Shown here: one piece after another, positions 25,903 through 53,631 of the stretch
How positions within the stretch are numbered: position 1 is the stretch's first letter
Layout: every line of letters starts with the position of its first letter
NCBI GenBank assembly: GCA_964291625.2
Contig: OZ220089.1
Coordinates: forward strand, 320,001-384,000
Origin: Candidatus Latescibacterota bacterium
Lineage (GTDB): Bacteria > Latescibacterota > UBA2968 > UBA8231
Length of the DNA stretch: 64,000 bases
Direction: 5' to 3'
Program-made: the position numbers and the translations under genes
Notes under the pieces: model-generated
Database searches by the model: none
What the model was told of the DNA's origin: nothing
Seen by the model: only the letters and a program-made list of their open reading frames with translations

Positions 25903-26295
25903 TCAGCGTATGCCGATGGTCTCGACCCCGTGTTCCCGGAGCTGATCCAGGAAGGTGATGATCTCGTCGTACGGAAGCTCCCCGGAGCCGGTGAACATCA
26001 CCTTGCGCTTGGCCCCGGACCCCGCCCGGTGGAACTCGTCGATCTTGCGCAGGAGCTCCTCCATGGTGACCTCCTTGGTATCCAGGAGGATGCGCCGGTC
26101 CGCGGTGTACTCCACGATCGGGTCCGGCTTGACCTGGCCCGACGCCGCGCCCGCCCCCTGGGGGAGGGTGGCCGAGAGCGTCTGGAAGATGATCGGCGTG
26201 ATGACCATGAAACCGAGCAGGAGCGAGAGCGATACATCCGCCAGGGGCGTGACGTTGATCGACGACTCGGACCGGGTGCTCTTCGTCGTGTACAT
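25903..26295 (-). CDS. exbD: ExbD/TolR family protein (canonical Asp)
   Basis: INVTPLADVSLSLLLGFMV; C-terminal LPYDEIITFLDQLREHGV. Confidence 0.85.
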   Translation of the reverse strand: MYTTKSTRSESSINVTPLADVSLSLLLGFMVITPIIFQTLSATLPQGAGAASGQVKPDPIVEYTADRRILLDTKEVTMEELLRKIDEFHRAGSGAKRKVMFTGSGELPYDEIITFLDQLREHGVETIGIR

Positions 26296-26296
26296 C

Positions 26297-26737
26297 TCAG
26301 CCTCCCCCTTTCTTCTTGGCGATCAGCTCAACGCCCGAGGCACCCGCGTTCTGACAGATCTCGATCAGCTGGAGGATGTCGCTGTAGGGACGGTTGCGGG
26401 CCCCCTTGATGACGACGGGCAGGTGTTCCTTGCCCTGGTACACCCGGGCCAGCTCCTCGCGCAGACCTTCGAGCGGGACTTCGCGCGTGTTCAGGTAGAG
26501 GCGGCCGTCACTCTTGCACGAGATGACCACGTGCTCCTGGCCCTGCTCGTTGATCTCGGTCAGGTTCACCGCTTCCGGGGTGTTGACGCGGATGCCCTCC
26601 TGGATGATGGGCATGACCACCATGAAGACGATGAGCAGGACCAGCGCCACGTTCACCAGGGGGGTCACGTCGGGCATGGGGCTCTGGGGCGGCCGCGCCC
26701 GCAGGGTCAGGCTGTCGAAGGCCCTCTTCTTGGCCAT
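26297..26737 (-). CDS. exbD: ExbD/TolR family protein (TM Asp replaced by Asn)
   Basis: PDVTPLVNVALVLLIVFMV; VVIKGARNRPYSDILQLIE. Confidence 0.85.
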   Translation of the reverse strand: MAKKRAFDSLTLRARPPQSPMPDVTPLVNVALVLLIVFMVVMPIIQEGIRVNTPEAVNLTEINEQGQEHVVISCKSDGRLYLNTREVPLEGLREELARVYQGKEHLPVVIKGARNRPYSDILQLIEICQNAGASGVELIAKKKGGG

Positions 26738-26750
26738 CGCGGGCCTCCCT

Positions 26751-27443
26751 TCAGGCCGCTCGCCTGGCGCGGAGCAGGCGGCGGACGCAGTGGCCCGAGA
26801 GGCGGGAGGCGGAGTTGTGAAGCCCGATGGCGAGGTTGTCCACCCGGCTCATGAAGACGTTGTAGGCCCACAGGGCCGGCATGGCCACGAACAGGCCGAT
26901 GACCGTCGTCACCAGGGCCTCCGAGATGCCGGCGGAGACCGCGGCCAGTCCGCCGCCGCCGCCCGAGGCGATCCCCCTGAAGGCCGAGATCAGTCCCGTG
27001 ACCGTTCCGAAGAGGCCGAGGAACGGCGCCACGCCCACGATCGTGGCCATGCCGGGCAGGCGCACCCGCAGGTTGGCCACGGCCACGTCCAGTCCGCGTC
27101 CCACCTCGACCTCCACGCCTTCCGTCACCAACTGGTCGGACTCCTCCTCGCGCCTGAGCATGACGTACTCCCTCAGGGCGCCGCGCAGCACCGTGGCCAG
27201 CGGATTGTGGCCCGCCTCCTCGGCCTGCTGCACCCTGCCGCTCAGTTCGTCGACATCGACACTGCTGTCGATGGCGGCCTCGAAGTCCGCCGCCAGCGCC
27301 TCCGACCTCTCGCGCGCCCAGCGCAGCGCCAGGACGCGGTCGATCATGACGGCGTAGGAGTAGATGGAGAGCACCGCCAGGACGATGACCACCGTCTTGC
27401 CGGTGAAGGCCATTGCGTTCCACAACTCGCTGATCAGTTCCAT
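26751..27443 (-). CDS. exbB: MotA/TolQ/ExbB proton channel protein
   Basis: APFLGLFGTVTGLI; GISEALVTTVIGLFVAMPA; AGGAGG RBS upstream. Confidence 0.9.
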   Translation of the reverse strand: MELISELWNAMAFTGKTVVIVLAVLSIYSYAVMIDRVLALRWARERSEALAADFEAAIDSSVDVDELSGRVQQAEEAGHNPLATVLRGALREYVMLRREEESDQLVTEGVEVEVGRGLDVAVANLRVRLPGMATIVGVAPFLGLFGTVTGLISAFRGIASGGGGGLAAVSAGISEALVTTVIGLFVAMPALWAYNVFMSRVDNLAIGLHNSASRLSGHCVRRLLRARRAA

Positions 27444-30667: not shown

Positions 30668-30703
30668 GTGGACAGCTCACGCGCACCCGCCTAGGGTTGG
30701 CGT

Positions 30704-33673: not shown

Positions 33674-33680
33674 GGCAGGG

Positions 33681-34517
33681 TCAGGGACCGCTCCGGAGCA
33701 GGCGGGCCCCGATCGAGGCGGCACGGGCCCCGGGCGCCGCATGAAAGCGGTTGGCGGACCTCAGACGCTGGGCGCCGCTGTGGTGGAAGTACCCGCCCCG
33801 GTAGACCCGCTGCTCACCGGCGGACGGACCCGGCGGATCGGTTCCGGGTGCGCGGCCGTAGTAGTCGGCGGCGTACCAGTCCTGCACCCACTCGCACACA
33901 TTGCCGTGCATGTCGTGGAGCCCCCACCGATTGGGACGTCGGGTAGCCACGGCCTGGGCGTGGCGCCTTCCCGCGTCCCAGGTGTTGCCCGTGTGCCAGG
34001 CGTGGTCACCGAGGAGGGACGGGTCGTCGCCGAAGGACCAGCGGGTCGTGGTCCCGGCCCGGCAGGCGTACTCCCACTCCGCCTCGGTAGGGAGGCGGTA
34101 GAGATCCGCGGCGGCCAGGGTGTTCATCCGGTCCACGAACCCCTGCACCTGGTCCCAGGAGACGTTCACCGCCGGGTACTCCGGCCCCTCCTCCACGAAG
34201 TCCAGGCCCGCCCACGGCCGGCTGCCCATGACGGCCACCCACTGGGCCTGGGTGATCTCGGTGCGGCCCAGGTGGAAGGGCCGCGAGATCCTCACCTCCC
34301 GGAGGGGGCTTTCGTCCGCGTCCCTGCCCGGCTCGGTGACCGGCGAGCCCCTGAGAAAGGCACCGGAGTCAATCCGAACGAAGGCCATCTCCGCGCCGCC
34401 CGGCAGCTCCACCACCAGGGCAGGGTTGCCCCCGTCCGCCACATCCCCCTCCGGCGCACAGCCCAGGCCGAGGGCTCCCGAGGCCAGCATTGCCATCTGC
34501 CTTGCCACCGAGGGCAT
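33681..34517 (-). CDS. Formylglycine-generating-enzyme (SUMF1) fold lipoprotein
   Basis: LGC lipobox; TEITQAQW, PAVNVSW, YRLPTEAEWEYACRAG, PNRWGLHDMHGNVCEW, RVYRGG. Confidence 0.9.
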   Translation of the reverse strand: MPSVARQMAMLASGALGLGCAPEGDVADGGNPALVVELPGGAEMAFVRIDSGAFLRGSPVTEPGRDADESPLREVRISRPFHLGRTEITQAQWVAVMGSRPWAGLDFVEEGPEYPAVNVSWDQVQGFVDRMNTLAAADLYRLPTEAEWEYACRAGTTTRWSFGDDPSLLGDHAWHTGNTWDAGRRHAQAVATRRPNRWGLHDMHGNVCEWVQDWYAADYYGRAPGTDPPGPSAGEQRVYRGGYFHHSGAQRLRSANRFHAAPGARAASIGARLLRSGP

Positions 34518-34520
34518 GGC

Positions 34521-35771
34521 TCAGTACACGGATTCAGGGCGCGTGTCGATGAATCCGACGGTGCAGTCCACCGTCACCCGGGCGGACAGCCCCTGCATGA
34601 CCTGCGAGACCAGGTCCGGAGCCTGCCGGCCGCCCGGCTGCCCCGCCTCCGCCGTGTCGGCGGCCGCCCCGCCTGGCCTCATGGGGCCGCCGGAGGGCCG
34701 GAAGCGCCAGCCGCGGATCCGGGCGGCGAGGCAATCCCCCACCGCCTCGCTGACCACCGTGGAGGAGAGGGCTTCCGCCTCGGCGACCGTGCCGGGCGGC
34801 AGGATCACGAAGCGGACCGACACCTCTCCCTCCGAGGCCTTGCCGGCCATGGACTCCCTGGCAAAGCACTCGTTCAGCTCGTCCAGGCGGGACTTGATGT
34901 AGGCCTCCACGGCGGTGACGTCGCGCGTGATGTCCCCCGTCACGTTGCCGGTCACCCGGGTGCCGGGCAGCAACTCGGCGCGCGACACCTCCCTGGAGAC
35001 GGTCTGGCGCTGCTCCTCCCAGGCCGCCACCCCGATCTCCCGGTCGAAGTCGAACCCGATGTCGATCGTCTCCAGGGGCTTGCCGAAGGTGTTGAACTTG
35101 AGGACGAAGTCCCGCAGGTTGAGCCGGACCTGCTCGACCTCCGCGTCCAGTGGGTCGAAGACGATGAATCCCCCGTACTCCTCGCCCCGGAAGACCCGCT
35201 CCCCTACGCCGTAGTTGTTGGTCCGCACCAGACCCATGCGCATGTTGAAGCGGTAGTACTCGTTGCCGCTCGGTCCCCTCAGGCTCCGGTAGTAGGACTC
35301 GAAGTTCCTCGGCGACGAACCGGCCAGGACTCCGTAGGGCTCGAGGAGCTCTCCGGGACGGTCGGTGGTCAGGAACGAACGCAGCGGCTGCAGCTCGACC
35401 TTGGCGAAGGAGTAGTTGTGCACGGTGACCCGGAAGACGGTGAACCGGTTGCGCACGTACCCGACAGCCGGGTCGATGTAGTCACCGTAGGTGTACGGAT
35501 TCGTCGAGTACTCCCCCTGGCTGGACTCGGCCGGGAAGAGATCGTTCAGCCGCTGGTCGGTCATGTGCTCCACGTCGATCCTCAAACCCTCCAGGCCATA
35601 GGAGACGGTGCCCCCCTCGCCGACCGTGAAGCTCTCTCCCTGGTCCTCCAGGGCGGTGAGGGAGGAGGTGCGCTGGTAGATCGGCGGGTAGATGACGCTG
35701 CAACTGAGAAGGGCTGGCACGAGGAGGGCCAGAAGCGGCGCCGTCGGGAGGCTTCGGCAGTGGTTTCTCAT
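34521..35771 (-). CDS. Lipoprotein with C-terminal AgmX/PglI (TonB-C-like) domain
   Basis: Lipobox LLSC; C-terminal ELNECF...GEVSVRFVILPPGTV...VGDCLAARIRGWRF. Confidence 0.75.
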   Translation of the reverse strand: MRNHCRSLPTAPLLALLVPALLSCSVIYPPIYQRTSSLTALEDQGESFTVGEGGTVSYGLEGLRIDVEHMTDQRLNDLFPAESSQGEYSTNPYTYGDYIDPAVGYVRNRFTVFRVTVHNYSFAKVELQPLRSFLTTDRPGELLEPYGVLAGSSPRNFESYYRSLRGPSGNEYYRFNMRMGLVRTNNYGVGERVFRGEEYGGFIVFDPLDAEVEQVRLNLRDFVLKFNTFGKPLETIDIGFDFDREIGVAAWEEQRQTVSREVSRAELLPGTRVTGNVTGDITRDVTAVEAYIKSRLDELNECFARESMAGKASEGEVSVRFVILPPGTVAEAEALSSTVVSEAVGDCLAARIRGWRFRPSGGPMRPGGAAADTAEAGQPGGRQAPDLVSQVMQGLSARVTVDCTVGFIDTRPESVY

Positions 35772-35805
35772 GGTCGTTGAAGCACCCCTCTTCGAGGAGG
35801 CCGGG

Positions 35806-37035
35806 TCACTGGCGGCCGGCCTGGTTGTAGAAGTCGATCTGCTGCTGGGCGATGGAGCCCTTCTGGGTGAGGGCGAAGACCACGAGGTTGACGCCGAGCT
35901 TCAGCTGGGGCTCGTTCTCCGTCTCCCGCTCCCAGAGCGCTCCGTAGCCCTTGTCCGAGTAGACGGCCACCAGCCGGTCCCGGAGGTAGATGCCCTCCAG
36001 CCAGTAGGAGGGCCGTCGGGTAGCCGCGTACTGGTTGGACGCGTTGAGCACCTCCCCGCCCAGGGGGGGGCCGCCGTCGAAATCGAAGAAGACGTGGTAG
36101 ATGGGGTTGTCGTCCCGTAGCGGCACGAAGCGGGCATCCCGACCCAGGGCCTCCTTGAACATCGCCTTCATCGAGGCCTCGGCGGGGCCGTACTCCAGGC
36201 GCGGAGCGTCGTTGTCCGCGAGCACGAAACCGCCGTTGCGCAGGTACTTCCCGAGGTTGGCCGCCTCGTGCTTGGTCAGCTCGAAGGCCGACCGCGTGGT
36301 GATGTACACGAAGGGGGCCTTGAAGAGGGCCTGGGAGTCGAGGTACATCTGCTCGTCCACCTTGGCCTCGATCCGCGTCCAGTTGTTGATCCAGCGGGCC
36401 AGCTGAAGCAGCGCCCGGGGCCGCGAGGGCTCCAGGATGGTCCCCCAGGCGCGCGCCAGGTAGACGAAGCCGGTGACGTTGGTCTTGTCCGTGGGATCCT
36501 GGATCACCATTCCCTTGTACTTGCCGGTGTTGATGGCCGACAGGTCCAGGAACTCCGCCTGCATGTCGATCCGTCTCTCGGGCTCCTTCATGCTGGCGAT
36601 GCTGACCGCCTCGAACTGAGGCATCGCCACCACGGCGTCGCCGAGGCCGGTGCCCGCTGCCACGGTGAACTCCGCGCTTCCTCCGGTCCGGCTCCACATG
36701 CGCGTGCCCACCGGCATGCCCGCGCTCACCATGCGCCGTCCGCTGACCGTGGTGGTGGTGCGGTCCCCGCTCGAGCGGACAACGGGGGCGCCTTCGGGAA
36801 CGGCCTCCTTCCTGAAGGCGAACTCCCGGGTCAGCTGCGGCTCGGGCAGGAAGAAGGGGGTCTTCTCCTCGTCCCACTCGATGCGGGCCACCACCTCCTC
36901 CTCTTCCTCCGCCTGTGGCACCAGGTAGAGAAAGAGGGCCAGGGCGTGGAGTGCCGCCGAGGCCGCCAGACCGGCGTGAAAGAGGCGCCGGTTGCGCGAC
37001 AGGACCGTCAGGGAGCCGCTCTGCCGGGGGCTCAC
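35806..37035 (-). CDS. DUF4159-domain protein with TonB/TolA-like N-terminal TM anchor
   Basis: GTG start overlaps the TPR gene stop; TM AASAALHALALFLYL; DUF4159-like PFVYIT...NLGKYLRNGGFVLADN...NPIYHVFFDF...LEGIY...LKLGVNLVVFALT. Confidence 0.8.
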   Translation of the reverse strand: MSPRQSGSLTVLSRNRRLFHAGLAASAALHALALFLYLVPQAEEEEEVVARIEWDEEKTPFFLPEPQLTREFAFRKEAVPEGAPVVRSSGDRTTTTVSGRRMVSAGMPVGTRMWSRTGGSAEFTVAAGTGLGDAVVAMPQFEAVSIASMKEPERRIDMQAEFLDLSAINTGKYKGMVIQDPTDKTNVTGFVYLARAWGTILEPSRPRALLQLARWINNWTRIEAKVDEQMYLDSQALFKAPFVYITTRSAFELTKHEAANLGKYLRNGGFVLADNDAPRLEYGPAEASMKAMFKEALGRDARFVPLRDDNPIYHVFFDFDGGPPLGGEVLNASNQYAATRRPSYWLEGIYLRDRLVAVYSDKGYGALWERETENEPQLKLGVNLVVFALTQKGSIAQQQIDFYNQAGRQ

Positions 37036-40000
37036 AGGTGCTTCCTCTCGATGGTGAGGCGCCGCCGTTCGCAGAACTCCATCATCCGGGGCGTCACCTG
37101 GGCATTGCCCCGCTCTCCCTGGGTGATGACATCGCCGAAGGCATCCACGGCCTTCTGCCATTCGCCCAGCTGCTGATAGCACACCCCCACGTTCATCTTG
37201 GCCGCCAGGCCGCTGGAGGTCATCGAGTACTGCCGCCACACGGCTTCAAGGGGGCCGATGGCTTGGCGGATCAGGTCGTGGTCGTCTTCTGCGAGGGCCC
37301 GGTTGAAGGCCTCCATGGCGCCGCTGTAGTCCCGGAAGGCGACCGCCTCCCGCACGTCCCGCAGCACCCCTTCGGCCTGCCGGGCGGCCTCGGATTCCGG
37401 GAAGTCGGCCTGGAGCCCCTGGAACAACTCGTAGGCCCGGTCGTAGTCGCCGGCGTTGTAGCTCATCTCGGCCAGGGTGTACCTGGCCGTGGGCAGGTGA
37501 CGCCCCCCGGGGTAACGGGTCAGGTATTCCTCCATGGCCTGCCGCACCGCGGCCTGGTGCTCTGCCGAGGGCTCCGCCGGCGCCTCGTTGAGCAGACACC
37601 AGGCGATGTTGTAGAGGGCCTCCTCGGCCAGCCCGGTCTCCGGGAAGCGCCGGATCACCTGTCGGTAGGTCTGGCGGGCCTCCCCGTAGGCCCCCGAGTT
37701 GTAGCGGCTCTCGGCCAGGCGGAAGAGGGCATCGGCGGCCACGTCCAGGTCCGGGTACTGGTCGACCACCCCCGCGAAGAAGGGGATGGCCCTGCTGAAG
37801 CGGGCCTTGTTGAAGTGCGCATAGCCAAGGTAGTACCGGGCATACCCGGCATTCGGATGCCCGGGGTAGTCGGCCAGCATCCGGCCGAAGCTGGCTGCGG
37901 CCAGGGCGGCGGCGTCGGTCTGGAGCGCTGCCAGGCCGCGCAGGAACAGGAGGTCGGCGGCGAAGAAGCCCCTCGGAAAGGCGCGCAGACCCGCGTCGGC
38001 GCGGTCGAAGGCGCGCGCGAAGTCCTCGGTCCGCACCGCGGACTCCGCCTGCAGGAACCAGGCCTTCTCGCGCAAGTGGTACTGCCGCTCCTCCGGGAGG
38101 GGCCCCTCCTTCAGATCCAGCCCGAGGATCTCCTCGCAGGCGGCGAAGGCGTCGGCGTAGCGGCCCTGCCGGTTGGCGATCTCCGCCTCCGCCAGCAGGT
38201 GCTCGGCGCGCTCGAGGGGACCCGCCGCCGCGTCGGCCATCTGCCGGTAGATGGCCTGGGCCTGGCCGTAATCCCCCAGGTTGGCGTAGGCGGCCGCCAG
38301 GAGGCGCCGCGCCGCGGAGGACAGCTCCGGGTCGGTCCACTCCCGGTTCAGCTCTTCGAGGGCCTCGGAGTACCGCTTCATTCGGAACAACAGGGAGCCG
38401 CGGCTGTACGCCGCCCGCTGCCCCAGGTCGGGGTCGCCCTGGTCGATGACCGCGGCGAAATGCGTCAGGGCTCCCTCCTGCTCTCCCAGCTCCATGGAGG
38501 CGGAGGCGAGCAGGTAGTGGAGAGCCTGACCCTCGGGCCGGCCCTTCGCCTCCAGGCCTTCCTGCAGCACCGCCACCGCCTGCCGGTGCTCTCCCTGCCG
38601 CACCAGGAGCTGCCCGGCCTCCAGGCGCGAGCGGGCGAAGAGCTCGGCTTCCCGGCCCACGGCCAGCAGCTCCCTCAGGGCGCGCTCCTGGTTTCCGGCC
38701 TCCCTCTCCACGATGCCCAGCTCGAAGCGGGCCACGTCCTGTTCGGGCTTCTCCGCCAGCTCGTCGATCACCGTGCGATACGTCTTCGCCGCCATGGCGT
38801 GGTCGCCGAGGCCATGGTGGGTCCGGGCGATCTGGAAGAGGGCGCTCTGGCGGTACCCCTCGGCGTTGGGGGCCTCGGCCACGCTTCCCAGAAAGACCAG
38901 GGCCTCACCCATCTTGTCCGGCTGGTCCTGCAACTGGATGGCCAACCCCAGGTTGAACCGCAGCTCCACGTCGTAGGGGGACCCCGGGTAGGCCGCCAAG
39001 GTGGCGCGCAACTCGCTCTCGGCGCGGCGGTAGTAGTCCAGACGCTCCTCTTCCGGTTGCCTCTCCGCCACGCGGAACCAGGCCCGGGCGATCTGCAGGG
39101 CCACGCCCTCGACCGCGAGGCCGGCCCGTGCGGCCGCGGCCTCGTAGTTCGCCCGGTACACCTCGTACTCACGCACCGCCTCCTCGTAGTGCTCGGTCTC
39201 GAAGTAGCGGTTGGCCAGCAGGAGCTGCATGCGCGCCTTCTGCACCACATCGTCGGTCGCCTCGATGGCCTGGTGGTACACGGCGACGACGGCCGCGAAG
39301 TCCCCCCGCCGGTAGTGCATGTCCGCCTGGCGCAGGTACGCCTCTTCGGCCAGCCGCTGCTCCTCGGCGAAACGTGAGGCCACCAGTTGGAAGGCCTCCT
39401 CGGCCTCGGCGTACTGACCGGTCTTCTCGTGGCACTCCCCGACGCGGATGAGGGCCTTGGCCGCCAGGTCGAGAGCCGTCTCGTCCACCAGGCCGGCGAT
39501 CTTCTGCCGCTTCATCTGCAGGATCTCGCGCTCCGACATCTCCTCGATGCGCTGGGAGTCGACCAGCCGCTGGTAGAAGGGGACGGCCTCCCGGTAGTTC
39601 TCCAGCGCGAAGTGGGCCTCGCCGATCTGGAACAGGGCCCGGCTGCCGCGGTAGCCGCCGGGAAAGCGCTCCACGAGACGTTCGAAGGCGGTTATGCTGT
39701 TGCGGTAGTCTTCCCTGTCATAGTGGGCCCAGCCCACATCGTACATCGCCTGCTCCACATAGGCGCTGGACGGATAGCGCTCGATGAGCAGGGCGGCCCC
39801 CTCGATGGTGCGCTCGTAGTCCTGGATGGCGTACCAGCAGGCCACGGCGCGGCTGCGGGCCAGGGCCTTCAGCGCGTCCACGGTGGACAGCTCCTCGGTC
39901 CTGACGAAGGCGTCGGCCGCCTCCCCGAAGAGGGACCTGGCTCGGTCCTGGTACCGGGAGCGCCGCTCCGGGTCGCGGCTCCTGGCCGCGCTGGCGAGGG

Positions 40001-40283
40001 CTTCCTCGGCGGACTTGAAGTGCGCATTCCCGGTCTGGTACAAGGCCACTTCCTGCAGCGGCGCCGAGATTTCGCCGACGGTCACCGCCACGTCCTTCAT
40101 CTGCAGGAAACGGCTCTGGCTCCGGATGATGCGCTGGTAGGCCTCGATCGCCTGGTCGTAGGCTCCCGAGGCGTAGAACCTCTGGGCGTCGGCGAAGGTC
40201 GCCTGCATCTCCGGAGCCGTGGGCACCGACCGGGTGACGGCGATCATCACCGTCAGGCCTACCAGGGTGATCAACGCGACCAT
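37032..40283 (-). CDS. Large membrane-anchored tetratricopeptide repeat protein (BamD/CpoB-like repeats)
   Basis: N-terminal hydrophobic helix; many TPRs with xxYP/FP turns (ERYPSS, ERFPGG, AYPGSP, DYPGHP, QYPDLD, RFPETG, RYPGGR, DFPESE). Confidence 0.88.
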   Translation of the reverse strand: MVALITLVGLTVMIAVTRSVPTAPEMQATFADAQRFYASGAYDQAIEAYQRIIRSQSRFLQMKDVAVTVGEISAPLQEVALYQTGNAHFKSAEEALASAARSRDPERRSRYQDRARSLFGEAADAFVRTEELSTVDALKALARSRAVACWYAIQDYERTIEGAALLIERYPSSAYVEQAMYDVGWAHYDREDYRNSITAFERLVERFPGGYRGSRALFQIGEAHFALENYREAVPFYQRLVDSQRIEEMSEREILQMKRQKIAGLVDETALDLAAKALIRVGECHEKTGQYAEAEEAFQLVASRFAEEQRLAEEAYLRQADMHYRRGDFAAVVAVYHQAIEATDDVVQKARMQLLLANRYFETEHYEEAVREYEVYRANYEAAAARAGLAVEGVALQIARAWFRVAERQPEEERLDYYRRAESELRATLAAYPGSPYDVELRFNLGLAIQLQDQPDKMGEALVFLGSVAEAPNAEGYRQSALFQIARTHHGLGDHAMAAKTYRTVIDELAEKPEQDVARFELGIVEREAGNQERALRELLAVGREAELFARSRLEAGQLLVRQGEHRQAVAVLQEGLEAKGRPEGQALHYLLASASMELGEQEGALTHFAAVIDQGDPDLGQRAAYSRGSLLFRMKRYSEALEELNREWTDPELSSAARRLLAAAYANLGDYGQAQAIYRQMADAAAGPLERAEHLLAEAEIANRQGRYADAFAACEEILGLDLKEGPLPEERQYHLREKAWFLQAESAVRTEDFARAFDRADAGLRAFPRGFFAADLLFLRGLAALQTDAAALAAASFGRMLADYPGHPNAGYARYYLGYAHFNKARFSRAIPFFAGVVDQYPDLDVAADALFRLAESRYNSGAYGEARQTYRQVIRRFPETGLAEEALYNIAWCLLNEAPAEPSAEHQAAVRQAMEEYLTRYPGGRHLPTARYTLAEMSYNAGDYDRAYELFQGLQADFPESEAARQAEGVLRDVREAVAFRDYSGAMEAFNRALAEDDHDLIRQAIGPLEAVWRQYSMTSSGLAAKMNVGVCYQQLGEWQKAVDAFGDVITQGERGNAQVTPRMMEFCERRRLTIERKHL

Positions 40284-40362: not shown

Positions 40363-43173
40363 TCATTCATCGAAGCCCAGGATGACCCGCAGGAAGGCCG
40401 AGGCGATGTCGAGGTCCTCCCTCTGCCGGGCGGGATCGCCGTACTGGCGCCGGGTCCACTTCACCCCCAGGTTGGTGGCGATGTTGTACCCGAAGTAGGG
40501 GGACCGGTTCGTCAGCTGCACCACCCGCACCACCTCCTCGTAGCTGTCGCGGCCGTCGGCCAGGTCCTCCTTGCGCAGGGGCAGGCCCGGCAGCCCCTGG
40601 GTGCCGAGCCACAGGTAGGTGCGCGGCGTGATGTGACAGGAGGCCTTGAGGATCGGTATCAGGGTCCACTCGTCAGCGAGGTCCACGGCCAGACTCTCCC
40701 GGGTCCTTCGCAGGACCAGTCCCTTGCCCTGGGCGATCAGCTGCCAGCGGTCCGACAGCTCCCTCACGTACTCGGCCCGGGCCACCATCGTCAGGCGGGT
40801 GATGGTGTCGGCAACCTGGTCGCTGCCGTCGGACAGGGTCGCCTCCTGCTGCTCGTTGACCGCATAGCGCAGGTTGCCGCCGAGTCGCAGGCCGGGGGCG
40901 GCGGTCAGGTCGGCCTCGACGTAGTGCTGCCGGTCCAGGCTGTCGCGATACTCCAGCTGGTCCGTCAGCCGGGTGGGGGCGTACGTGGGCCAGTGCTCGT
41001 GCCCGCCCAGGACCTCGCCATAGGTGATGTAGTTGTCGACGATGTCGTCATGGACCCGCTGCAGGCGGGTCTCGGCCCAGACCGAACCCCACCGGGGGTT
41101 GTGGCGGCGGAAGGTGACCACGCCGTAGGTGCTCTCGTTGCGGGCGCCGCTGACGATCCCCTCCGCCCGCAGACGGCCCGCGGTGAGGCGGACGCCGCCG
41201 GGCAGGTGCAGCACCCCGAAGGCGTGGTGCCCGCTCTGATCCAGCTCGTACGGGTAGTCCGAGTCCAGGTCGTCCTCGCGGTGGTCGGCGATCCCGTTGT
41301 TGTTGGCGTCCCGGCCATAGGCATACTCTTCCGGCTCCACGTCGTACAGCAGGAACGCCTCCAGGTAGTCGGGCACCTGGTTGCCGTTGCGGTTGGTGTC
41401 CGGAATCCGGTCGTTGTCCCGGTCGTTGCCCGGAAAGACCCCGTCCGGGTCGTAGGGGATCGTCGTGTAGTGGGGACTCGGCCGATGCCCGTGGCCGATG
41501 TCGGGATAGCGATCGTCGTCGTCGTTGTCCTGCACGAAGCCGCTGTCGTACTCCTCGGCGATCGAGAACAGCTCCCCCCCTGCCTCCACCCGGCCCCGGC
41601 GCCAGCGCCCGTTCACGTAGTACGCGCCCGCGTCCGTGCTGCTGCGCGCCCCGTTCCAGCGGCGGATGCCCCTCACCTCCCGATCCTCGCGGTACCCCGG
41701 CCGGCCGTCGGGAAACTCCCGGAACTCCACGTTGCGGGCGTACTCCCAGCGCACCTCGGCGTCGCCCCACTCCCAGGACCCGTTGAGCCCCCACAGGGCG
41801 CGGCCCGTCCACTCCCCCAGGTCCAGGCGCACCCACTCCAGGTTCGACATGTCCTGCACGTTGCCCCGGGACCGGAGGACGGCGGTCACCCCCGGCGTCT
41901 CCTTCCTCTCGAGGTAGCCGCTCGTGGAGACGAGGGTGTTGCCGCCCACGCGGTAGTGGAACTCGTACTCCTCCACCGCCGGCGCCGAGACGAACAGCGG
42001 CAGCACCTCGACCCGGTAGTCGTTGCCCACCAGCGCCTCCACCTGCACCTGCCGGACGAAGGGCTCCTGGCTCACGTCGAAGATGGCGATGATCTGCTCA
42101 TGGCCGTCGGCGCGATGGCCCGGAACGTCGGGCAGGGCCTCCACCCAGCGCAGCAGCTCCTCCAGGTTGACCTTGTCCGACACGTCCTCGCCCTGCAGGT
42201 GATCGCGCAGGTAGAGCAGGTCCGCGAAGCGCGTGCCCTGATCCAGGTAGACCGCCCGCCGGAACTGTCCGGAGAGCCGGTTCGTCGTGCCCACCGCCGT
42301 TGGATTCTGGCCGTTGATGCGGGCCAGGAAGGGCCGCAGGTCCGGCCGGTCCTCGCCGTTGATCTTCAGACGCACCTCCGATACCAGGGCGCCGGCCTGC
42401 AGGTCCTCCGGCGAATCGTCGGAGAACCGAACCAGGTAGCCCACGGGCAGCACCTGCTCGGCCTGCAGCCCGCCGCGCAGATCGAAGCTCTCCTGCTCGG
42501 CGTCGAAGATGTGGAAGTTCACCCCCGTGGCCCCCAGGGTCAGCGCTCCCAGCTCGACGTCGCCGTGGGCCCCCAGGAGCATCGCCGAGCTGCGGATCTC
42601 GGCGGCCGAGTCCCAGTGGTGCCAGGTGGGACCGCCGCCGTAGCGGCTGTCGGCGAAGGGCCCGGTGTAGCGCTGTCCGATGACGGCCACCCGGGTGTTG
42701 CCCACCTGGGTGTCCAGGCGGATGCCGTCGTATCCCGGCAGGGCCAGCGTCAACGGCGTGAAGAGGGTGCGGATCTCCTCCCCGTAGATCAGGCTCGCCG
42801 CCCACCGGGAGTGCGACTCCCGGGCCACCAGGTTGCGCTCGAAGCGACCGAAACGGGGGAGGGTGCGGAAGGACTTGGGCAGGGCCGACGTCGTCGTCGA
42901 CCGGGTCTCCCGCCACTCGTACACGTCGTAACCCTGAATCAGGAAGTTGCCCAGAGGACCGTAGTAGTTTCGCCGCGAGAACCGGGTGAACTCCGGCAGG
43001 GTGTAGTCCTCGAAGCCGTAGTTGAGGTAGGAGGGATCCGACCGGTAGAGGAAGGAGCGGCCCGAGACGTCCTGGGCGAAGCCGAGATGCGGGTCCTCGG
43101 CCCCCGCCCGACCCGGGTCCCCCCAGGCCGGCACGAAGACCAGCGTCCAGACCGCGAGCCTCGCCCGTCTCAT
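40363..43173 (-). CDS. Uncharacterised ~930-aa secreted/outer-membrane protein, paralog A
   Basis: Signal peptide; FTPLTL, SDDSPED, GNVQDMSNL, DNDDDDRYPD, DGVFPG, DANNNGIADHREDD; alternating beta-strand C-terminus FLRVILGF; ATGA overlap with the upstream paralog. Confidence 0.8.
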   Translation of the reverse strand: MRRARLAVWTLVFVPAWGDPGRAGAEDPHLGFAQDVSGRSFLYRSDPSYLNYGFEDYTLPEFTRFSRRNYYGPLGNFLIQGYDVYEWRETRSTTTSALPKSFRTLPRFGRFERNLVARESHSRWAASLIYGEEIRTLFTPLTLALPGYDGIRLDTQVGNTRVAVIGQRYTGPFADSRYGGGPTWHHWDSAAEIRSSAMLLGAHGDVELGALTLGATGVNFHIFDAEQESFDLRGGLQAEQVLPVGYLVRFSDDSPEDLQAGALVSEVRLKINGEDRPDLRPFLARINGQNPTAVGTTNRLSGQFRRAVYLDQGTRFADLLYLRDHLQGEDVSDKVNLEELLRWVEALPDVPGHRADGHEQIIAIFDVSQEPFVRQVQVEALVGNDYRVEVLPLFVSAPAVEEYEFHYRVGGNTLVSTSGYLERKETPGVTAVLRSRGNVQDMSNLEWVRLDLGEWTGRALWGLNGSWEWGDAEVRWEYARNVEFREFPDGRPGYREDREVRGIRRWNGARSSTDAGAYYVNGRWRRGRVEAGGELFSIAEEYDSGFVQDNDDDDRYPDIGHGHRPSPHYTTIPYDPDGVFPGNDRDNDRIPDTNRNGNQVPDYLEAFLLYDVEPEEYAYGRDANNNGIADHREDDLDSDYPYELDQSGHHAFGVLHLPGGVRLTAGRLRAEGIVSGARNESTYGVVTFRRHNPRWGSVWAETRLQRVHDDIVDNYITYGEVLGGHEHWPTYAPTRLTDQLEYRDSLDRQHYVEADLTAAPGLRLGGNLRYAVNEQQEATLSDGSDQVADTITRLTMVARAEYVRELSDRWQLIAQGKGLVLRRTRESLAVDLADEWTLIPILKASCHITPRTYLWLGTQGLPGLPLRKEDLADGRDSYEEVVRVVQLTNRSPYFGYNIATNLGVKWTRRQYGDPARQREDLDIASAFLRVILGFDE

Positions 43174-45884
43174 CCCTGGAAGGGCTCCAGTCCCAGCAGC
43201 AGGCGGACGAAGAGCAGAGAGCGCTCGACATCGAGCTGCTTCCGGCTCCTGGTCTCGAATCGAAGGGTCTTGGCGAGGTATCCCGCGTTCAGGGTCAGGT
43301 AGTAGCCTTCGTACGTGGTGCGGTTGGTGATGGAGATGATGTAGTCCCTGCTGCCGTAGTCGACCTGGTGGTTGATCAGGTTCCTGTAGGTGCTGGACAG
43401 AAAGGGGAAACCCTGGGCGCCCGCGCTCAGGCTCGTCTGGGGTGACAGGGCGACGGTGGCCACCACCATGGGATAGAAGTAGCGCTCGGAGACGGGATGG
43501 ACATGGAAGTCACCGCCCTGCCGCCGGTAGGCCATGTACTTGGCCCTGGGGGTGACCGTCCACCGGTCCCTCTTCCAGGTGTAGCCGCTGCGCAGGACCC
43601 ACGCCCACTCCTGGATCGTGTCGGCGGGCTGGAAGGCGGAGGCCCGCTGGAGATTGACCGTGTGCTTGAGACGGCTGTTGATCTCCAGGCCCTTCACCCG
43701 GATGAAGGTGGCGTCGAGGTGAGCCGTGTTGACGAAGCTGTTCCTCATCAGCAGCGGGTCTTCGACCTGCGTCAGACCCTGGACGCTCGCCGTCGAGGTG
43801 GGATCGATCGGCAGCCCGTGGGGCGTGAAGAAACCGAACTGGGGCGAATCGTCGGCGATGTCGTCATGGACCCGCTTGAGGAAGTTGGAGAAGTCGATCG
43901 AGGCATGGGGAAAGAGGGTGCGCCGGTAGTTCAGGCGCACATAGTTGACGCGGTTCTCGCCCGGCCCCCAGATCTCGCGGACATGGTAGCGCCCCACGCT
44001 CAGGTCCAGGGCCTGCACCGGCTCGATGGCGCCGAACAGGTGATACCCCTTCCTGTCCGTCGGATAGGGGTAGTCGGGCCGGAAGTCGTCCTCGCGGTGA
44101 TCGATGACCCCGTTGTTGTTCATGTCGTCGCCGTAGTCGTACTCCAGGGGATCGACATTGTAGAGCAGGAAGGGCTCGTTGTAGTCGGGCTCGGCGTTGC
44201 CGTTCTCGTTCACGTCGGTGCGGCCGTCCTGGTCGCGGTCGAGGCCCGGGAAGACGCCGTCCCCATCGCCGAAGCTCTTGTTGAGGAAGTGGAAGTCGGG
44301 CCACAGGTCCTTGTCGTCGTTGTCGTCCACCGTGTCGAGAATGACGGTGTCGTTGTACCTGTCCTGCCAGTTGGGAGCGACCTCCCCGAGGAAGGGACTG
44401 CCGAGGTCATCGGAGTAGGTCCAGTATTCCCGGCTCTGGACGGAGAGGGATGTGCCGTACAGGGGATCCATCCGGAAGAGCTCTCCCGCCAGGTGGAACC
44501 AACCGAGCTGCTTCCTGGCGTGGACGAAGAAGGCATCCGCCGTCTCCCGGTGCCAGCGGCTCCGTCCGATCGTGCTCGGATACTGGAGGTAGTTGAAGCT
44601 GCGGGCGTACTCGCCGCGCACCTCGAGTCCCTCCCGCTCCAGCTCCAGGCGCAGGCTGCCCGTGGTACGGCCGCTCTGTCGGCCGTACTCGAAGGAGACG
44701 CGGCGCAGATTGCCCAGGTCCCCCACGTTCCCCACCTGGGACGCCACGTCGCGGAAGAAGGTGGCCCGCACGACCCGGAGATCCGGGTTGCTGGTGGTGG
44801 CCGCCGCGGCGGGCAGGAAGACCTCGGACAGACTGATGCGGTAGTCGTTGGCCACCATGGCGTTGAATCGAAGGGACTCGACCTCGTCGCGCATCTCCTG
44901 GGGGATCTTGAACCAGTAGATGAGGTACTCGGTGCCGTTGGCCTCCAGGAAGCCCTGGGCGCCGGGGTCCTCAAGGGGCAGGTCCCCCTTGAGGAACTCG
45001 ATGTAGGGGGGAATCGTGAAGCCCGGCCGGAAGGCCCTGTCCCCGTTCGGAAAGTGTGGATTCACCACGTCGGCGTCGTGGCGCGTCACGCTGACTTCCA
45101 CGAGCTCGTTGAGAGGGCCCTCGACGCGAACATCGTAAACCCGCGCGCCACGTCCATCGTCCTCCGAGCCATCGCTGATCTTGACGGCCAGATAGGCGGG
45201 CGGGTTCTTCCGCCGCGAGGGCAGCACCCCCTTGAGGCTGTTGTCGCCAAAGCCGACGAAGCTGTCGGTGCGCAGGAGGTTGGCGTAGGAGAGGCTCACC
45301 CTCAGGGCTCCCGCCCTGTGCGCGAGGTGACCGCCCAGCAGGTAGGTGGGCTCGTTCGTCAACTGGTGGAAGTCGTTGTCGTCGTCGTTGTAGATCGGCC
45401 AGTCGAAGCGCGACGACACGGCGGTGGCCTGCGTGCCTCCGAGATCCACGTCCCAGCGGATCCCGTTCAGCTGGGCCAAGTCCAGGGTCAGGGGAGTGAA
45501 CTTGGTCCGTATCCGGTTCCCCACCATCAGCCGGCTGGCCCAGCTCTTGTGGGTATCGTGGGCGACGACGAGGTTGCCCACGAGGGCCCGGAACTGGGGG
45601 TCCTTGTTCAACAGGCTCCCGGGATCCCGCTCCATGGGCCGCGTCTCCTGGCTGCGCCAGACTTCGGTGCCGTCGAGGAGGAAGTTGCCCAGCTCGTCGA
45701 AGACGGGAGCCCGGATCTGCGACCACAGAGAGGCCGTGTACTCCCTGTACCCGGAGCGCGCGTAGTATTGCTCGTAGTCGCGGACCGGCTCGTAGAGGAG
45801 CTGGCTCTCCCCGGGTGCCGAGGAGAGTACCAGCCAGGCCCCCAGGAGAGCAGCAGCGAGACCAGGACGTTTGTGCACCGTCAT
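43170..45884 (-). CDS. Uncharacterised ~900-aa secreted/outer-membrane protein, paralog C
   Basis: Start MTVHKRPGLAAALLGAW (signal peptide); same motifs (FTPLTL, GNVGDLGNL, DNDDKDLWPD, DGVFPGLD, DMNNNGVIDHREDD). Confidence 0.8.
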   Translation of the reverse strand: MTVHKRPGLAAALLGAWLVLSSAPGESQLLYEPVRDYEQYYARSGYREYTASLWSQIRAPVFDELGNFLLDGTEVWRSQETRPMERDPGSLLNKDPQFRALVGNLVVAHDTHKSWASRLMVGNRIRTKFTPLTLDLAQLNGIRWDVDLGGTQATAVSSRFDWPIYNDDDNDFHQLTNEPTYLLGGHLAHRAGALRVSLSYANLLRTDSFVGFGDNSLKGVLPSRRKNPPAYLAVKISDGSEDDGRGARVYDVRVEGPLNELVEVSVTRHDADVVNPHFPNGDRAFRPGFTIPPYIEFLKGDLPLEDPGAQGFLEANGTEYLIYWFKIPQEMRDEVESLRFNAMVANDYRISLSEVFLPAAAATTSNPDLRVVRATFFRDVASQVGNVGDLGNLRRVSFEYGRQSGRTTGSLRLELEREGLEVRGEYARSFNYLQYPSTIGRSRWHRETADAFFVHARKQLGWFHLAGELFRMDPLYGTSLSVQSREYWTYSDDLGSPFLGEVAPNWQDRYNDTVILDTVDDNDDKDLWPDFHFLNKSFGDGDGVFPGLDRDQDGRTDVNENGNAEPDYNEPFLLYNVDPLEYDYGDDMNNNGVIDHREDDFRPDYPYPTDRKGYHLFGAIEPVQALDLSVGRYHVREIWGPGENRVNYVRLNYRRTLFPHASIDFSNFLKRVHDDIADDSPQFGFFTPHGLPIDPTSTASVQGLTQVEDPLLMRNSFVNTAHLDATFIRVKGLEINSRLKHTVNLQRASAFQPADTIQEWAWVLRSGYTWKRDRWTVTPRAKYMAYRRQGGDFHVHPVSERYFYPMVVATVALSPQTSLSAGAQGFPFLSSTYRNLINHQVDYGSRDYIISITNRTTYEGYYLTLNAGYLAKTLRFETRSRKQLDVERSLLFVRLLLGLEPFQG

Positions 45885-45886
45885 GG

Positions 45887-48739
45887 CTACAGGATCCGAG
45901 CCTGGATGAAGAACTCGCTGAGCCGCTGGACCCGCCGGCTCGGCAGGTTGACGAACTCGGAGCGGCTGGAACGGAATCCGAGGTTCGTGCTCACGTCGTA
46001 GCCGGTGTAGTTGCTCAGGTTCTGGATGAGGACGATCCAGTGCCGGGCGTCGAAATCCCTTGACGGCGCCTTGGCCTCGCGGAACCGGTGGAGCCACGGC
46101 AGTCCCTGCACGCCCGCGCGAAGAGTCGTGTCCTCACTCAGCGCGTAGTCGGCCCGCAGAATGGGGATGATCTCGTGGCTCTCCAGGGGCATGAGGAGAT
46201 CACCCGGCGCCGTCCTCCGCCGCAGGGTGAACTTCACCATCGGACTCAGAGTCAGCCTGCCTCTGACATGGGCGTAATCGGCCTTGCTCACCAGGCTCCA
46301 GTCGAGGATGTCGTCCCCCAGTCCCGGCCGGCTGTCCCTGCGGTTGTTCCACTCGACCTTGGCTGCCTGGATGAGGTTCAGTCCCTCGACGCCGGTGTAG
46401 TGGCCCTTGGCGAAGAGGGTGCTCACGAGGCTGTTTTCCATCAGCATGAGATCGGGCCGCGGACGGATGGCGACATTGACCTGGGTCTGGGGCTCGATCA
46501 CCGCCTCGAAGAGTGGGTTGGGTATGTCGTCGCGTACCCGCTTGAGACGCCAGCGGGCGATGAATCGCCCCGCTTCGCTCCCTTCCGCCGTGTAACCGAG
46601 CTCTCCATAGGTCACCTCGTTTCGGCCTGCCGCCGCTCGCTGCCGGACCCGGTACCGCCCGAGGCGCAGCCCTGCTCTCTCGAAGGGTTGCACCGAGGCA
46701 AAGCCGTGGTAGCCCCGACTGTCCAGGTCATAGGGGAGGTCCGCCTTGTTGTCGTTCTCGCGCACGTCGACCACGCCGTTGTTGTTGAAGTCCTCCCCGT
46801 ACACGAAGTCGTCGGGTTCGACGTAGTACATGAGGAAGGGCTCGAGATAGTCCGGGTACTGGTTGCGGTTGACGTTGGTGTCCACCACCCCGTCCTCGTC
46901 CTGATCCAGGCCCGGGAAGACCCCGTGCCCGCCGCCCAGGCCGTACTCCCCGGCCGCATCGGGCCGGATGGCGTCCACGTCGATCCCCGAGGCGTTGGCA
47001 TAGGCTATGTAGACGGGGTCCAGAGGGTCCCAGTGTTCCACCTTGTCCGGCCACTCGTCGCCGTCGTCGTTGTCCTCCACCAGGTCCCACCCCAGGACGG
47101 CCTGCTGGCCCTCGGACCACACGGGCAACGAGACCTGGTAGGTCGGAGGGACGTGGAAGATCTCCAACCCCACGTCCCCCAGGGACCACTCCTGCAGGAG
47201 ACGCACGTACCACGCGTTCGTGGCGCGGTTCTCCCGTCGCCCCAGGAAGGGGAACCGGGCGTGCTGGACGTTGCTGATGTACTCCGCCTCCAGGTTGGCC
47301 CCGCCGATCTTCGCCTCCACCGTGCTGCCGAACTGGACCAGACCCGTGGGGAAGCCGTAGTCGACGGTGACCCAGCCCATGTTGGACCCGTCCTGCACGT
47401 TCCCCGGCGCCCGCTTGACGTTGTGCCAGTCGCTCCAGAGCGACGTGCCGCCGCCGAAGAAGCCATAGGCGGCGCCCACGTCCAGGCTGTAGTCCCCCGA
47501 CACCTGCACCCGGAACCGCAGGCTCTGCGGATCACCGGGCACCTCGTAGCGCAGTACCAGCAGGTCCGTGCCGCCCACCTGGAGGGGGAAGGGCTCCTCC
47601 ATGGGGATGCCCTCCCTGGCGAAGAGTCCCGAACGCTCGACGAAGATCCGGTCGGCGTTGAAGATCCGCGGGGCCCACGCTCCGTCCCGGCGGATGTGGG
47701 GAACCTCGCTCACCTCCACGACCTGGGGGATCAGCTTCACCTCGGGATCCACGTCCAGCCGCTGCTGACCGGCGTACAGCTCCACGGCGTACACATCGAC
47801 ACCGTGCTCATCCTCCGGCGAGTCGTCGCTGATGACCAGGTAGAAGGAGGAGGTGCCGGTCAGACGGGAAGGGACATCCCCGCGGAGGCTCGTGTTCCGC
47901 TGGGCCGCATCCTGCAGGTGTAGGTTCACGTAGGATGCGCCGAAGGTCAGGATGTCGCCGAACTGGCTGCTCCAGTGGCCGCCGAAGAGGTAGTGGGTGA
48001 AGTGACGGTCACCCGTCAGCGGCCGGGGCACGCGGGACGAGATCAGGGAGAAGCTGTTGCGGTGGGAGGACGCGTCCCAGCGGAGCCCCTCCAGACGGGA
48101 GAGGTTCAGGGTCAGCGGAGTGAACCGGCCGTCGAGGAGGTTGCCGATCATGAACCGGGTGGACCAGCCCCCGAAGGCGTCACGGAGGATCACCATGTTG
48201 CGGAACCGGCCCAGGCCCCAACCCGGCACCCTGCTGCTGCGCGCGGGGTCCAGGGTGCCGTACTCCTCGATCCGCAGGATCTCCACGCCGTCGACCAGGT
48301 AGGAACCGAAGGGATCGTAGGTGGGACGCTCGGGGCGGAATCCGTAGTCCCGGTAGCTGAGGAAGCTGTAGTTCTCGTAGCGCTCGTCCCAGAGCGGACG
48401 CAGCTCACGGTTGAGGAAGTCCTGCTGGCCCGACCAGTAGTCCTCGGGGGAACGCTGCGCCAGGCAGGGCTCGGCCAGACTGCCCGCCAGCACCGACAGG
48501 GCAAGACCTGCCACGGCCGCGCGCACTCTGCGGCCAGCGCATCCGGCGGCGGGCCACCGGCCGGCGCGGGGGCCGCCGGCGATCAGGTGGCCCGCATGGA
48601 GCTGGAGCCGATGGAAAGGACCGTCCCGGAGCCGGGACGCGGCCCGGTGCCCAACCTGGGTGCCAATCTCAAGGACAGGCGCAACCCCTCCGGGCCCATC
48701 ACCCGTGCCGTTCGTCGTCTCGGAGGCCTCGGTTGGCAA
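45887..48739 (-). CDS. Uncharacterised ~900-aa secreted/outer-membrane protein, paralog D (start uncertain; GTG 48526 possible)
   Basis: Signal-like VRAAVAGLALSVLAGSLAEPCLAQ; FTPLTL, SDDSPED, GNVQDGSNM, DNDDGDEWPD, GVFPGLD, DFNNNGVVDVREND. Confidence 0.78.
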   Translation of the reverse strand: MPTEASETTNGTGDGPGGVAPVLEIGTQVGHRAASRLRDGPFHRLQLHAGHLIAGGPRAGRWPAAGCAGRRVRAAVAGLALSVLAGSLAEPCLAQRSPEDYWSGQQDFLNRELRPLWDERYENYSFLSYRDYGFRPERPTYDPFGSYLVDGVEILRIEEYGTLDPARSSRVPGWGLGRFRNMVILRDAFGGWSTRFMIGNLLDGRFTPLTLNLSRLEGLRWDASSHRNSFSLISSRVPRPLTGDRHFTHYLFGGHWSSQFGDILTFGASYVNLHLQDAAQRNTSLRGDVPSRLTGTSSFYLVISDDSPEDEHGVDVYAVELYAGQQRLDVDPEVKLIPQVVEVSEVPHIRRDGAWAPRIFNADRIFVERSGLFAREGIPMEEPFPLQVGGTDLLVLRYEVPGDPQSLRFRVQVSGDYSLDVGAAYGFFGGGTSLWSDWHNVKRAPGNVQDGSNMGWVTVDYGFPTGLVQFGSTVEAKIGGANLEAEYISNVQHARFPFLGRRENRATNAWYVRLLQEWSLGDVGLEIFHVPPTYQVSLPVWSEGQQAVLGWDLVEDNDDGDEWPDKVEHWDPLDPVYIAYANASGIDVDAIRPDAAGEYGLGGGHGVFPGLDQDEDGVVDTNVNRNQYPDYLEPFLMYYVEPDDFVYGEDFNNNGVVDVRENDNKADLPYDLDSRGYHGFASVQPFERAGLRLGRYRVRQRAAAGRNEVTYGELGYTAEGSEAGRFIARWRLKRVRDDIPNPLFEAVIEPQTQVNVAIRPRPDLMLMENSLVSTLFAKGHYTGVEGLNLIQAAKVEWNNRRDSRPGLGDDILDWSLVSKADYAHVRGRLTLSPMVKFTLRRRTAPGDLLMPLESHEIIPILRADYALSEDTTLRAGVQGLPWLHRFREAKAPSRDFDARHWIVLIQNLSNYTGYDVSTNLGFRSSRSEFVNLPSRRVQRLSEFFIQARIL

Positions 48740-50813: not shown

Positions 50814-50840
50814 CAGGAGGTTTCCCCTGCCGATAGAAAC

Positions 50841-50874
50841 AAATGGGTGGCCGGTTTGCACCGGCCACCCATTT
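50841..50874 (-). terminator. Perfect 15-bp stem-loop between the first and second genes of the long operon
   Basis: AAATGGGTGGCCGGT-ttgc-ACCGGCCACCCATTT, followed on the minus strand by GTTTCT. Confidence 0.7.
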
Positions 50875-52758: not shown

Positions 52759-52924
52759 GAGTTGCTCCTTTTCTCCGCCCTCCATGACGAGCCCGGTTCA
52801 ATCCGGCTTTGAGGGGTGAGATTTGGTTCGTGACCTGCTATCTCCATGCCGGGTTTCGGCAGGGCCACTAAAGAGGCCACTATTGATTCTGCCTGCGGCT
52901 CAATCCTTTGGCTCCTTCTCGTTC

Positions 52925-53525: not shown

Positions 53526-53631
53526 CCGGATCCGATCCCTGTCTTCAACTCGCTCTGAAGCCCGGCACCTCCCGGCATCGGGCCGAGAGCCGCAAAATAA
53601 GCCGGACTCGACGGATTGTCGATCGAGTCAG

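Follow-up and report, generated by a model that had tools for sequence, protein, structure and literature searches.

The window analysed here, a stretch of 64,000 nucleotides from contig OZ220089.1 of a Candidatus Latescibacterota bacterium (assembly GCA_964291625.2, positions 320,001 to 384,000), carries on its minus strand a cluster of envelope genes that includes a membrane-anchored DUF4159 protein and a neighbouring lipoprotein. The original prediction had read this pair as a split TonB, with the energy-coupling SxxxH anchor on the DUF4159 protein and a TonB-C-like domain on the lipoprotein. In this work both proteins were compared between the window and the loci of a genome scan (80 of 124 kept, mostly Latescibacterota by title, some with Gemmatimonadota or other labels), and we propose that the DUF4159 protein may itself transmit the force of a proton motor of the ExbB/ExbD type. 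The features of the two genes are:

35806..37035, minus strand: transmembrane helix-linker-DUF4159 protein, 409 residues, proposed TonB/TolA-type force transducer (open reading frame, Pfam, AlphaFold model)
36922..36990, minus strand: single N-terminal membrane helix, residues 16-38 (AlphaFold model)
36946..36960, minus strand: S26-A-A-L-H30, on the same helix face as G22 (homologue conservation)
36874..36894, minus strand: candidate motor box (D-box-like strand), V48-V-A-R-I-E-W54 (conservation; extra strand in both SxxxH clades)
36553..36918, minus strand: predicted periplasm-spanning linker, residues 40-161, 122 residues with 9 Pro (AlphaFold model, composition)
35869..36423, minus strand: DUF4159 domain, residues 205-389, E 9e-28 (Pfam)
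34521..35771, minus strand: lipoprotein, 416 residues, with lipobox Cys24, a conserved N-domain of no Pfam family and an optional TonB-C-like tail
34689..34919, minus strand: AgmX/PglI (TonB-C-related) domain of the lipoprotein, residues 285-361, with Cys302 and Cys347

The DUF4159 gene starts at a GTG codon (37035) that overlaps the TGA stop of the upstream gene for a large TPR protein (GTGA). In the AlphaFold model of its product, one long helix (residues 16-38) leads into a linker modelled with low confidence, which is followed by a folded domain; the single transmembrane helix with S-A-A-L-H at 36960-36946 had been predicted at its exact position, and the DUF4159 assignment is likewise borne out. 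The description of the linker as acidic and extended stands only in part: pLDDT values below 50 at residues 71-76 and 81-161 point to disorder, but the acidic character is confined to residues 43-57, with 21 D/E and 14 K/R over the linker as a whole. The linkers of paralogous DUF4159 proteins are basic. In length, the 122 residues approach the median of 113 reported for TonB domain II.

The DUF4159 domain adopts the glutamine-amidotransferase-like or IFT52-N (GIFT) fold, with Foldseek E-values of 3e-12 to Hoch_4089 (4i66) and about 1e-3 to IFT52-N; to this shared C-terminal fold the window protein adds the N-terminal anchor, box and linker. Catalytic class I glutamine amidotransferases need a nucleophile Cys, and the 409-residue protein contains no Cys at all and is therefore no catalytic member of that class. 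Pfam, NCBIfam and Foldseek found no TonB-C or TolA-III domain on the chain, only DUF4159, and Pfam and Foldseek found no C-terminal vWA fold. BlaR1/M56 peptidase domains are fused ahead of the same DUF4159 subfamily in P0243 and P0244; the slot behind such domains is often filled by TonB-C. At one locus the anchored copy is separated from the lipoprotein by a tandem second DUF4159 gene (L027:7179-8213), in which the scan for helices found none. The sources consulted give no published function for DUF4159, PF13709, Hoch_4089 or 4I66, only a clan placement with ThuA and GATaseI-like families in the Pfam 2016 paper.

Conservation of the anchor was assessed in a close set, the 50 closest full-length homologues of the DUF4159 protein (59-96% identical; 120 of 410 homologues were listed), and with a profile of anchor and linker only, which gave 217 representatives of 50%-identity clusters, 150 of them listed and 145 aligned over the motif column. 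His30 is kept in 50/50 proteins of the close set, Ser26 in 49/50 and Gly22 in 43/50, the helix having a mean conservation of 57%. By chance, SxxxH appears in 7.8% of shuffles of this helix, and, of the 516 other hydrophobic segments in the compared loci, 5 contain it. The conservation that the original prediction called for thus holds among close homologues but not family-wide for the Ser: the listed representatives carry His in 123 of 145 cases, and the residue four positions before it is small in all 145 (Ala 115, Ser 13, Gly 13, Thr 4). The family motif is therefore small-x3-His, and SxxxH is one clade's version of it. Among the 108 listed representatives that are long enough, 102 run on into DUF4159 and none matches the AgmX profile; the remaining six resemble frameshifts or chimeras. 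At the level of loci, 77 could be scored (L039, where the anchor pattern was not found, L064 and L065, with no helix in the open reading frame, and the second DUF4159 gene of L027 were dropped from the motif counts), and the anchor reads SxxxH in 17, Ala/Gly-x3-His in 15 and lacks His in 45.

Shortly after the helix, residues 48-54 reach a mean conservation of 0.78 in the close set, as compared to 0.58 for the flanking residues 39-47. This conserved, alternating segment is an inexact match to the published D-box pattern (PMC10907165) and is modelled as coil; both SxxxH clades carry an extra strand after the helix, seen as an insert in the alignment. By analogy with that work and with PMC12204202, the segment may serve as a motor box.

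A coherent set of one ExbB and two distinct ExbD genes, hereafter the linked motor, is present in 25 of the 80 loci; one of these, L066, lies at a contig edge and shows the ExbD pair alone. The linked motor abuts the DUF4159 gene in eight loci, upstream in three and downstream in five. Its ExbB proteins belong to one subfamily (51-61% identical to the ExbB of L027), and on the tree the loci that carry it are scattered over several branches. The 80 loci yielded no separate TonB gene. As a side observation, linked motors (L026-L080, e.g. L027:4299-5969) have a conserved Cys in the first transmembrane helix (TM1) of ExbB and a Cys directly after the Asp in both ExbD helices.

The window itself holds a motor module of another subfamily, 7 kb downstream of the DUF4159 gene:

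26751..27443, minus strand: local TolQ-like ExbB, cognate status uncertain (TM1 S-I-Y-S-Y, E. coli TolQ S-I-A-S-W)
26297..26737, minus strand: local ExbD/TolR 1, with Asn at the proton-binding Asp of the family
25903..26295, minus strand: local ExbD/TolR 2, with the Asp kept

The original prediction had looked to this module as the partner of the DUF4159 protein; as the motor of the family it is not supported, being found near the DUF4159 gene only in L001-L003, whose proteins are 95-99% identical to the window protein. Elsewhere in the genomes of L001-L003, paralogous loci (L038/L079, L078 and L037/L080) do carry the linked motor. TolQ is the best-scoring NCBIfam model of the local ExbB, which keeps the Ser and has Tyr at the Trp position. 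An Asn in the first ExbD and an Asp in its partner suggest a motor with one protonatable subunit; the Asn-for-Asp substitution is also present in L001-L003. The gene that follows the ExbD pair (24840-25660, minus strand) has no Pfam or NCBIfam match and looks frameshifted, as its signal-peptide-like start lies in another frame than the rest; a TamB gene and then an Omp85 gene come next.

Based on its architecture, its conservation and the linkage of motor genes, we propose with a probability of roughly 0.6 that the DUF4159 protein serves an ExbB/ExbD-type proton motor as force transducer. With its small-x3-His face the helix would dock laterally on the ExbB pentamer, and the beta-strand just after the helix would be caught by the ExbD pair, while the linker of about 120 residues, predicted to be disordered, would span the periplasm. 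The non-catalytic DUF4159 domain, in place of TonB-C, would then grip a complex of the outer envelope that comprises the lipoprotein, a TPR scaffold and the large barrels, and the TonB-C-like tail of the lipoprotein would be an optional add-on. For the clade of the window, the motor is probably either the TolQ-like module 7 kb downstream or one whose genes lie elsewhere. A precedent for such an arrangement is given by the vWA-tipped, motor-driven force transducers published in 2025, which combine a His-bearing anchor with a non-TonB tip (Williams-Jones et al., PMC12204202). The layout and the synteny are the same, and both groups are known from prediction only; the present proteins differ in their DUF4159 tip, in a motif that is mostly Ala-x3-His and often lost, and in a cluster that adds large barrels, a lipoprotein and proteins with sorting-type C-terminal domains. 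The synteny of the vWA class (TPR, a tolQ-like gene and two different tolR-like genes) is seen at family level, the window having only the motor of another subfamily at a distance of 7 kb. Neither the text of that paper nor one of its supplements mentions DUF4159.

Several observations weigh against this proposal. The His is missing in 45 of the 77 scored loci, and 22 of the 25 linked-motor loci are among those without it; on this point the earlier idea of DUF4159 as an effector of an ExbBD motor, which agrees with the layout, the small-x3-His motif and the linkage in 25/80 loci, has to be qualified. The linked motor accompanies 0 of the 17 SxxxH loci in the DNA examined, L012, L014, L033 and L036 ending at contig edges. 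In Ton systems, Ser16 and His20 of TonB contact Ser34 and Trp38 of ExbB, and the Leu and Ser at His+7 and His+11 of the SHLS motif are less conserved (PMC12215075). In the linked ExbB, scored without L059, where TM1 is incomplete, a weak alignment places Ala at the Ser34 equivalent in 22 of 23 proteins and Leu, Ile or Val at the Trp38 equivalent in 23 of 23. This loss fits co-divergence of motor and transducer, and it also fits the absence of a helix contact. The SHLS Leu and second Ser are replaced in the window protein by Y and Q at positions 37 and 41, which are variable, and a linker of 122 residues with only 9 Pro is poor in proline. Other membrane-anchored products of these clusters (TPR, DUF4340) are possible motor partners, near-identical paralogues of few lineages dominate the loci, and an annotation-atlas feature search with a DUF4159 homologue, PF13709 being skipped, gave no TonB-like match. 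We infer from the distribution of the anchors, for two clades only, that His-less anchors may have co-diverged with the linked motor and that the SxxxH clades may use a more canonical one.

In the lipoprotein, the lipobox Cys24 is conserved in 116 of 120 listed homologues (out of 136), and NCBIfam model NF033768 (AgmX/PglI) matches residues 285-361 with 53.4 bits (cut-off 40), three homologues scoring 61-64 bits. Cys302 and Cys347 are both present in 92 of 94 listed tail-bearing homologues. It was described as a lipoprotein ending in an AgmX/PglI domain with a Cys pair, which is correct save that about 50 residues follow the match. A profile search of the PDB retrieved TonB C-terminal domains as the first 13 of its 15 matches (best E 2.7e-5), and Pfam TonB_C is matched at E<=0.05 in 52 of 90 family members; as judged from sequence, the tail is a homologue of TonB C-terminal domains with solved structures, in agreement with the fold assumed for it at the outset. 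For one tail-less lipoprotein the annotation atlas gave unnamed clusters and sub-0.9 leads only (LssY_C 0.80, DUF4352 0.79). A complex prediction for lipoprotein residues 25-416 with DUF4159 protein residues 40-409 scored 0.00 in two runs that returned no verdict, and speaks neither for nor against an interaction.

The remaining members of the cluster lie upstream of the DUF4159 gene:

37032..40283, minus strand: large TPR protein, 1083 residues, hydrophobic N-terminus without His; homologue in 70/80 loci
40363..43173, minus strand: outer-membrane beta-barrel 1, about 24 strands by manual count of the structure model
43170..46097, minus strand: beta-barrel paralogue 2 (open reading frame limits; true start probably later)
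45887..48739, minus strand: beta-barrel paralogue 3 (open reading frame limits; true start probably later)
48747..50861, minus strand: F5/8 type C protein with a CHU_C/FlgD-Ig C-terminal domain, candidate surface cargo; homologue in 35/80 loci
50917..52785, minus strand: protein with a FlgD-Ig C-terminal domain, candidate surface cargo; homologue in 8/80 loci

Among the 80 loci a lipoprotein homologue is found in 71, the large TPR protein in 70, barrels in 58, proteins with such C-terminal domains in 40 and motor genes in 28. The barrels of the cluster are about 950 residues long; three stand in tandem (40363-48739, minus strand), and a fourth, inverted copy at 53395-56436 (plus strand) is 86% identical to barrel 1. 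The model of barrel 1, the one paralogue modelled, shows an inserted beta-rich domain, Asp-rich (DxDxD) loops and some 60 low-confidence residues before the barrel, with no plug of the size found in TonB-dependent transporters (TBDTs), whose barrels have 22 strands and an N-terminal plug. None of 37 family members has a TBDT match in Pfam, and the only Pfam match is a weak one to SlpA in five of the 37; a fold search returned generic barrels only (best Z 14.7, root-mean-square deviation 6.3), and neither sequence nor fold searches gave the barrels a family name. Adjoining the barrels, the CHU_C/FlgD-Ig domains of the 48747-52785 proteins resemble type IX sorting tails. A promoter and terminator scan of the cluster was at chance level, and the operon limits therefore rest on gene spacing.

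Genes near the cluster are sulfatase-like, glycoside-hydrolase, FG-GAP and ABC-transport genes. Downstream, a frame for an SGNH/TPR protein (30677-33742, minus strand) meets no stop before running antisense through a whole BNR gene (30704-31792, plus strand), an overlap also present in L001-L003. In many paralogous clusters the DUF4159 gene or the motor is directly preceded by a DUF5683 gene and a small lipoprotein-like gene without a name (e.g. L027:3283-4223, L029:8861-9903 and L063:3344-4405), and some clusters add DUF4340 and a second TPR gene; none of these four was seen in the cluster of the window. Among the Latescibacterota papers listed, none deals with this cluster as judged from title and opening abstract lines.

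The likeness to the Ton system lies in the Ser-x3-His helix, the candidate D-box, the linker length and the TonB-C homologue on the next gene. TonB-C is, however, off the anchored chain, none of the TBDT families matches the barrels, and the linked ExbB is without Ser34 and Trp38 equivalents; because TonB-C is not on its chain, the DUF4159 protein would work like TonB/TolA without being a member of that family. With Tol-Pal it shares the anchor type, and the local ExbB of the window scores best as TolQ, but no TolB or Pal was recognised among the cluster genes scanned and the anchored chain has no TolA C-terminal domain. The core of the Myxococcus Agl-Glt/Nfs machinery (AglRQS, GltG/PglI, GltJ/AgmX, GltD and GltABH), as the sources consulted describe it, resembles the present set in having one ExbB-like and two ExbD-like proteins, a large TPR protein, three barrels and an AgmX/PglI domain. 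Here, in contrast, that domain sits on a lipoprotein and not on an inner-membrane chain, the barrels are 3-4 times longer, and the lipoprotein is no GltG or GltJ orthologue by model score (GltG 36.9 bits, in the tail region only, at a cut-off of 650; GltJ also far below its cut-off).

The tail admits two roles that, by analogy, are equally good: pulling on an outer-membrane protein as in a split TonB, or resting on the TPR scaffold in a GltD-like manner. For the second, it is tentatively possible that the AgmX/PglI tail binds the large TPR protein and stabilises an outer complex while staying off the force path. The best family match of the tail is indeed the myxobacterial AgmX/PglI model and not TonB_C, an AlphaFold model docks both Myxococcus TonB C-terminal domains (of GltG and GltJ) on the TPR protein GltD (PMC11761067), and the parts run parallel in one ExbB, two ExbD, the large TPR protein and three barrels; on the other hand, the NCBIfam matches of the TPR protein include no Glt model, and barrels of about 950 residues stand against the 209-275 of GltA/B/H (PMC3169522). 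Rather unlikely, in our view, is the split TonB of the original prediction, according to which the DUF4159 protein of tail-bearing clades passes force to the lipoprotein and the TonB-C-like domain of the latter pulls a strand of a barrel or another outer-membrane protein. The lipoprotein is widespread, with a tail in 53 loci, this tail is homologous to TonB C-terminal domains and retains the two Cys, it is present at every one of the 16 SxxxH loci whose lipoprotein is complete (that of L036 is cut off), no other open reading frame in the 80 loci gave a TonB-C-like match (best E 0.018), and loss of His need not equal uncoupling. As a rule, though, the idea is not supported: at 13 of 80 loci the lipoprotein is complete and yet tail-less, and nine of these combine a motor with the absence of any TonB-C in the vicinity. 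The cluster can thus occur without the tail, and one of the nine, L074, has a His anchor and an abutting motor. A DUF4159-TonB_C fusion was found neither among the three hits above 750 residues (two M56-DUF4159 fusions and one DUF4175-DUF4159 protein, from a weak search) nor among the 150 listed representatives, and the barrel model lacks a TBDT-sized plug.

The anchor and the tail also differ in how often they change. The 77 scored loci divide into 26 with His and tail, 25 with tail and no His, 12 with neither, one with His and no tail, and 13 in which the lipoprotein is absent or cut off; a pairing of His-less anchors with tail-less lipoproteins, considered as a candidate, was rejected on the 25 His-less loci with a tail. 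Quick, unrooted trees built from the DUF4159 domain show a single change of state for the tail, as compared to five for His and three for SxxxH. Co-variation of His or SxxxH with the tail had only two independent pairs (p = 1), a test without power. Repeated loss of His, mostly where the motor is linked, would also suit a helix that only anchors a periplasmic DUF4159 adaptor, with His serving packing or oligomerisation and the linked ExbBD powering another subunit or a TonB elsewhere. The M56 fusions point the same way, since they imply that DUF4159 can work without this anchor. We nonetheless hold this to be improbable, given that all 145 aligned representatives of 50%-identity clusters keep the small-x3-His spacing, that the helix is followed by a conserved strand, and that motor genes abut the DUF4159 gene from either side in eight loci. 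A cleaved signal peptide that releases DUF4159 as a soluble periplasmic protein is very improbable: a basic N-region does precede the hydrophobic stretch, but in the 50 homologues columns 36-41 hold bulky residues or Pro and offer no small-x-small site, and the middle of the helix is occupied by an invariant His.

For a DUF4159-tipped transducer, the job of the machine is possibly to import through a barrel that has no plug, to export or display the proteins with sorting-type C-terminal domains, or to drive a Glt-like envelope process. The most specific version, a proton-powered trans-envelope machine of Latescibacterota made of ExbB/ExbD/ExbD, the DUF4159 transducer, a lipoprotein that provides TonB-C in trans in derived clades and three barrels of a new family, is quite doubtful; it might, for instance, export or display its FlgD-Ig/CHU_C-tailed neighbours in a type IX-like manner with a different motor and channel. 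A two-chain TonB, if true, would be a new arrangement for such motors, but the whole operon, with its unexplained barrels, may be of more value than that idea. Should the DUF4159 protein be a force transducer, one branch of DUF4159 would gain a role open to testing, that of effector tip on a 5:2 proton motor. Tips of this kind would then number three, with TonB-C and vWA as the earlier two, and the Ser/His-Ser/Trp contact would be seen to drift on both sides of the motor-transducer pair. Such a role would also give an uncultured phylum a multi-copy envelope machine with an unclassified family of large barrels.

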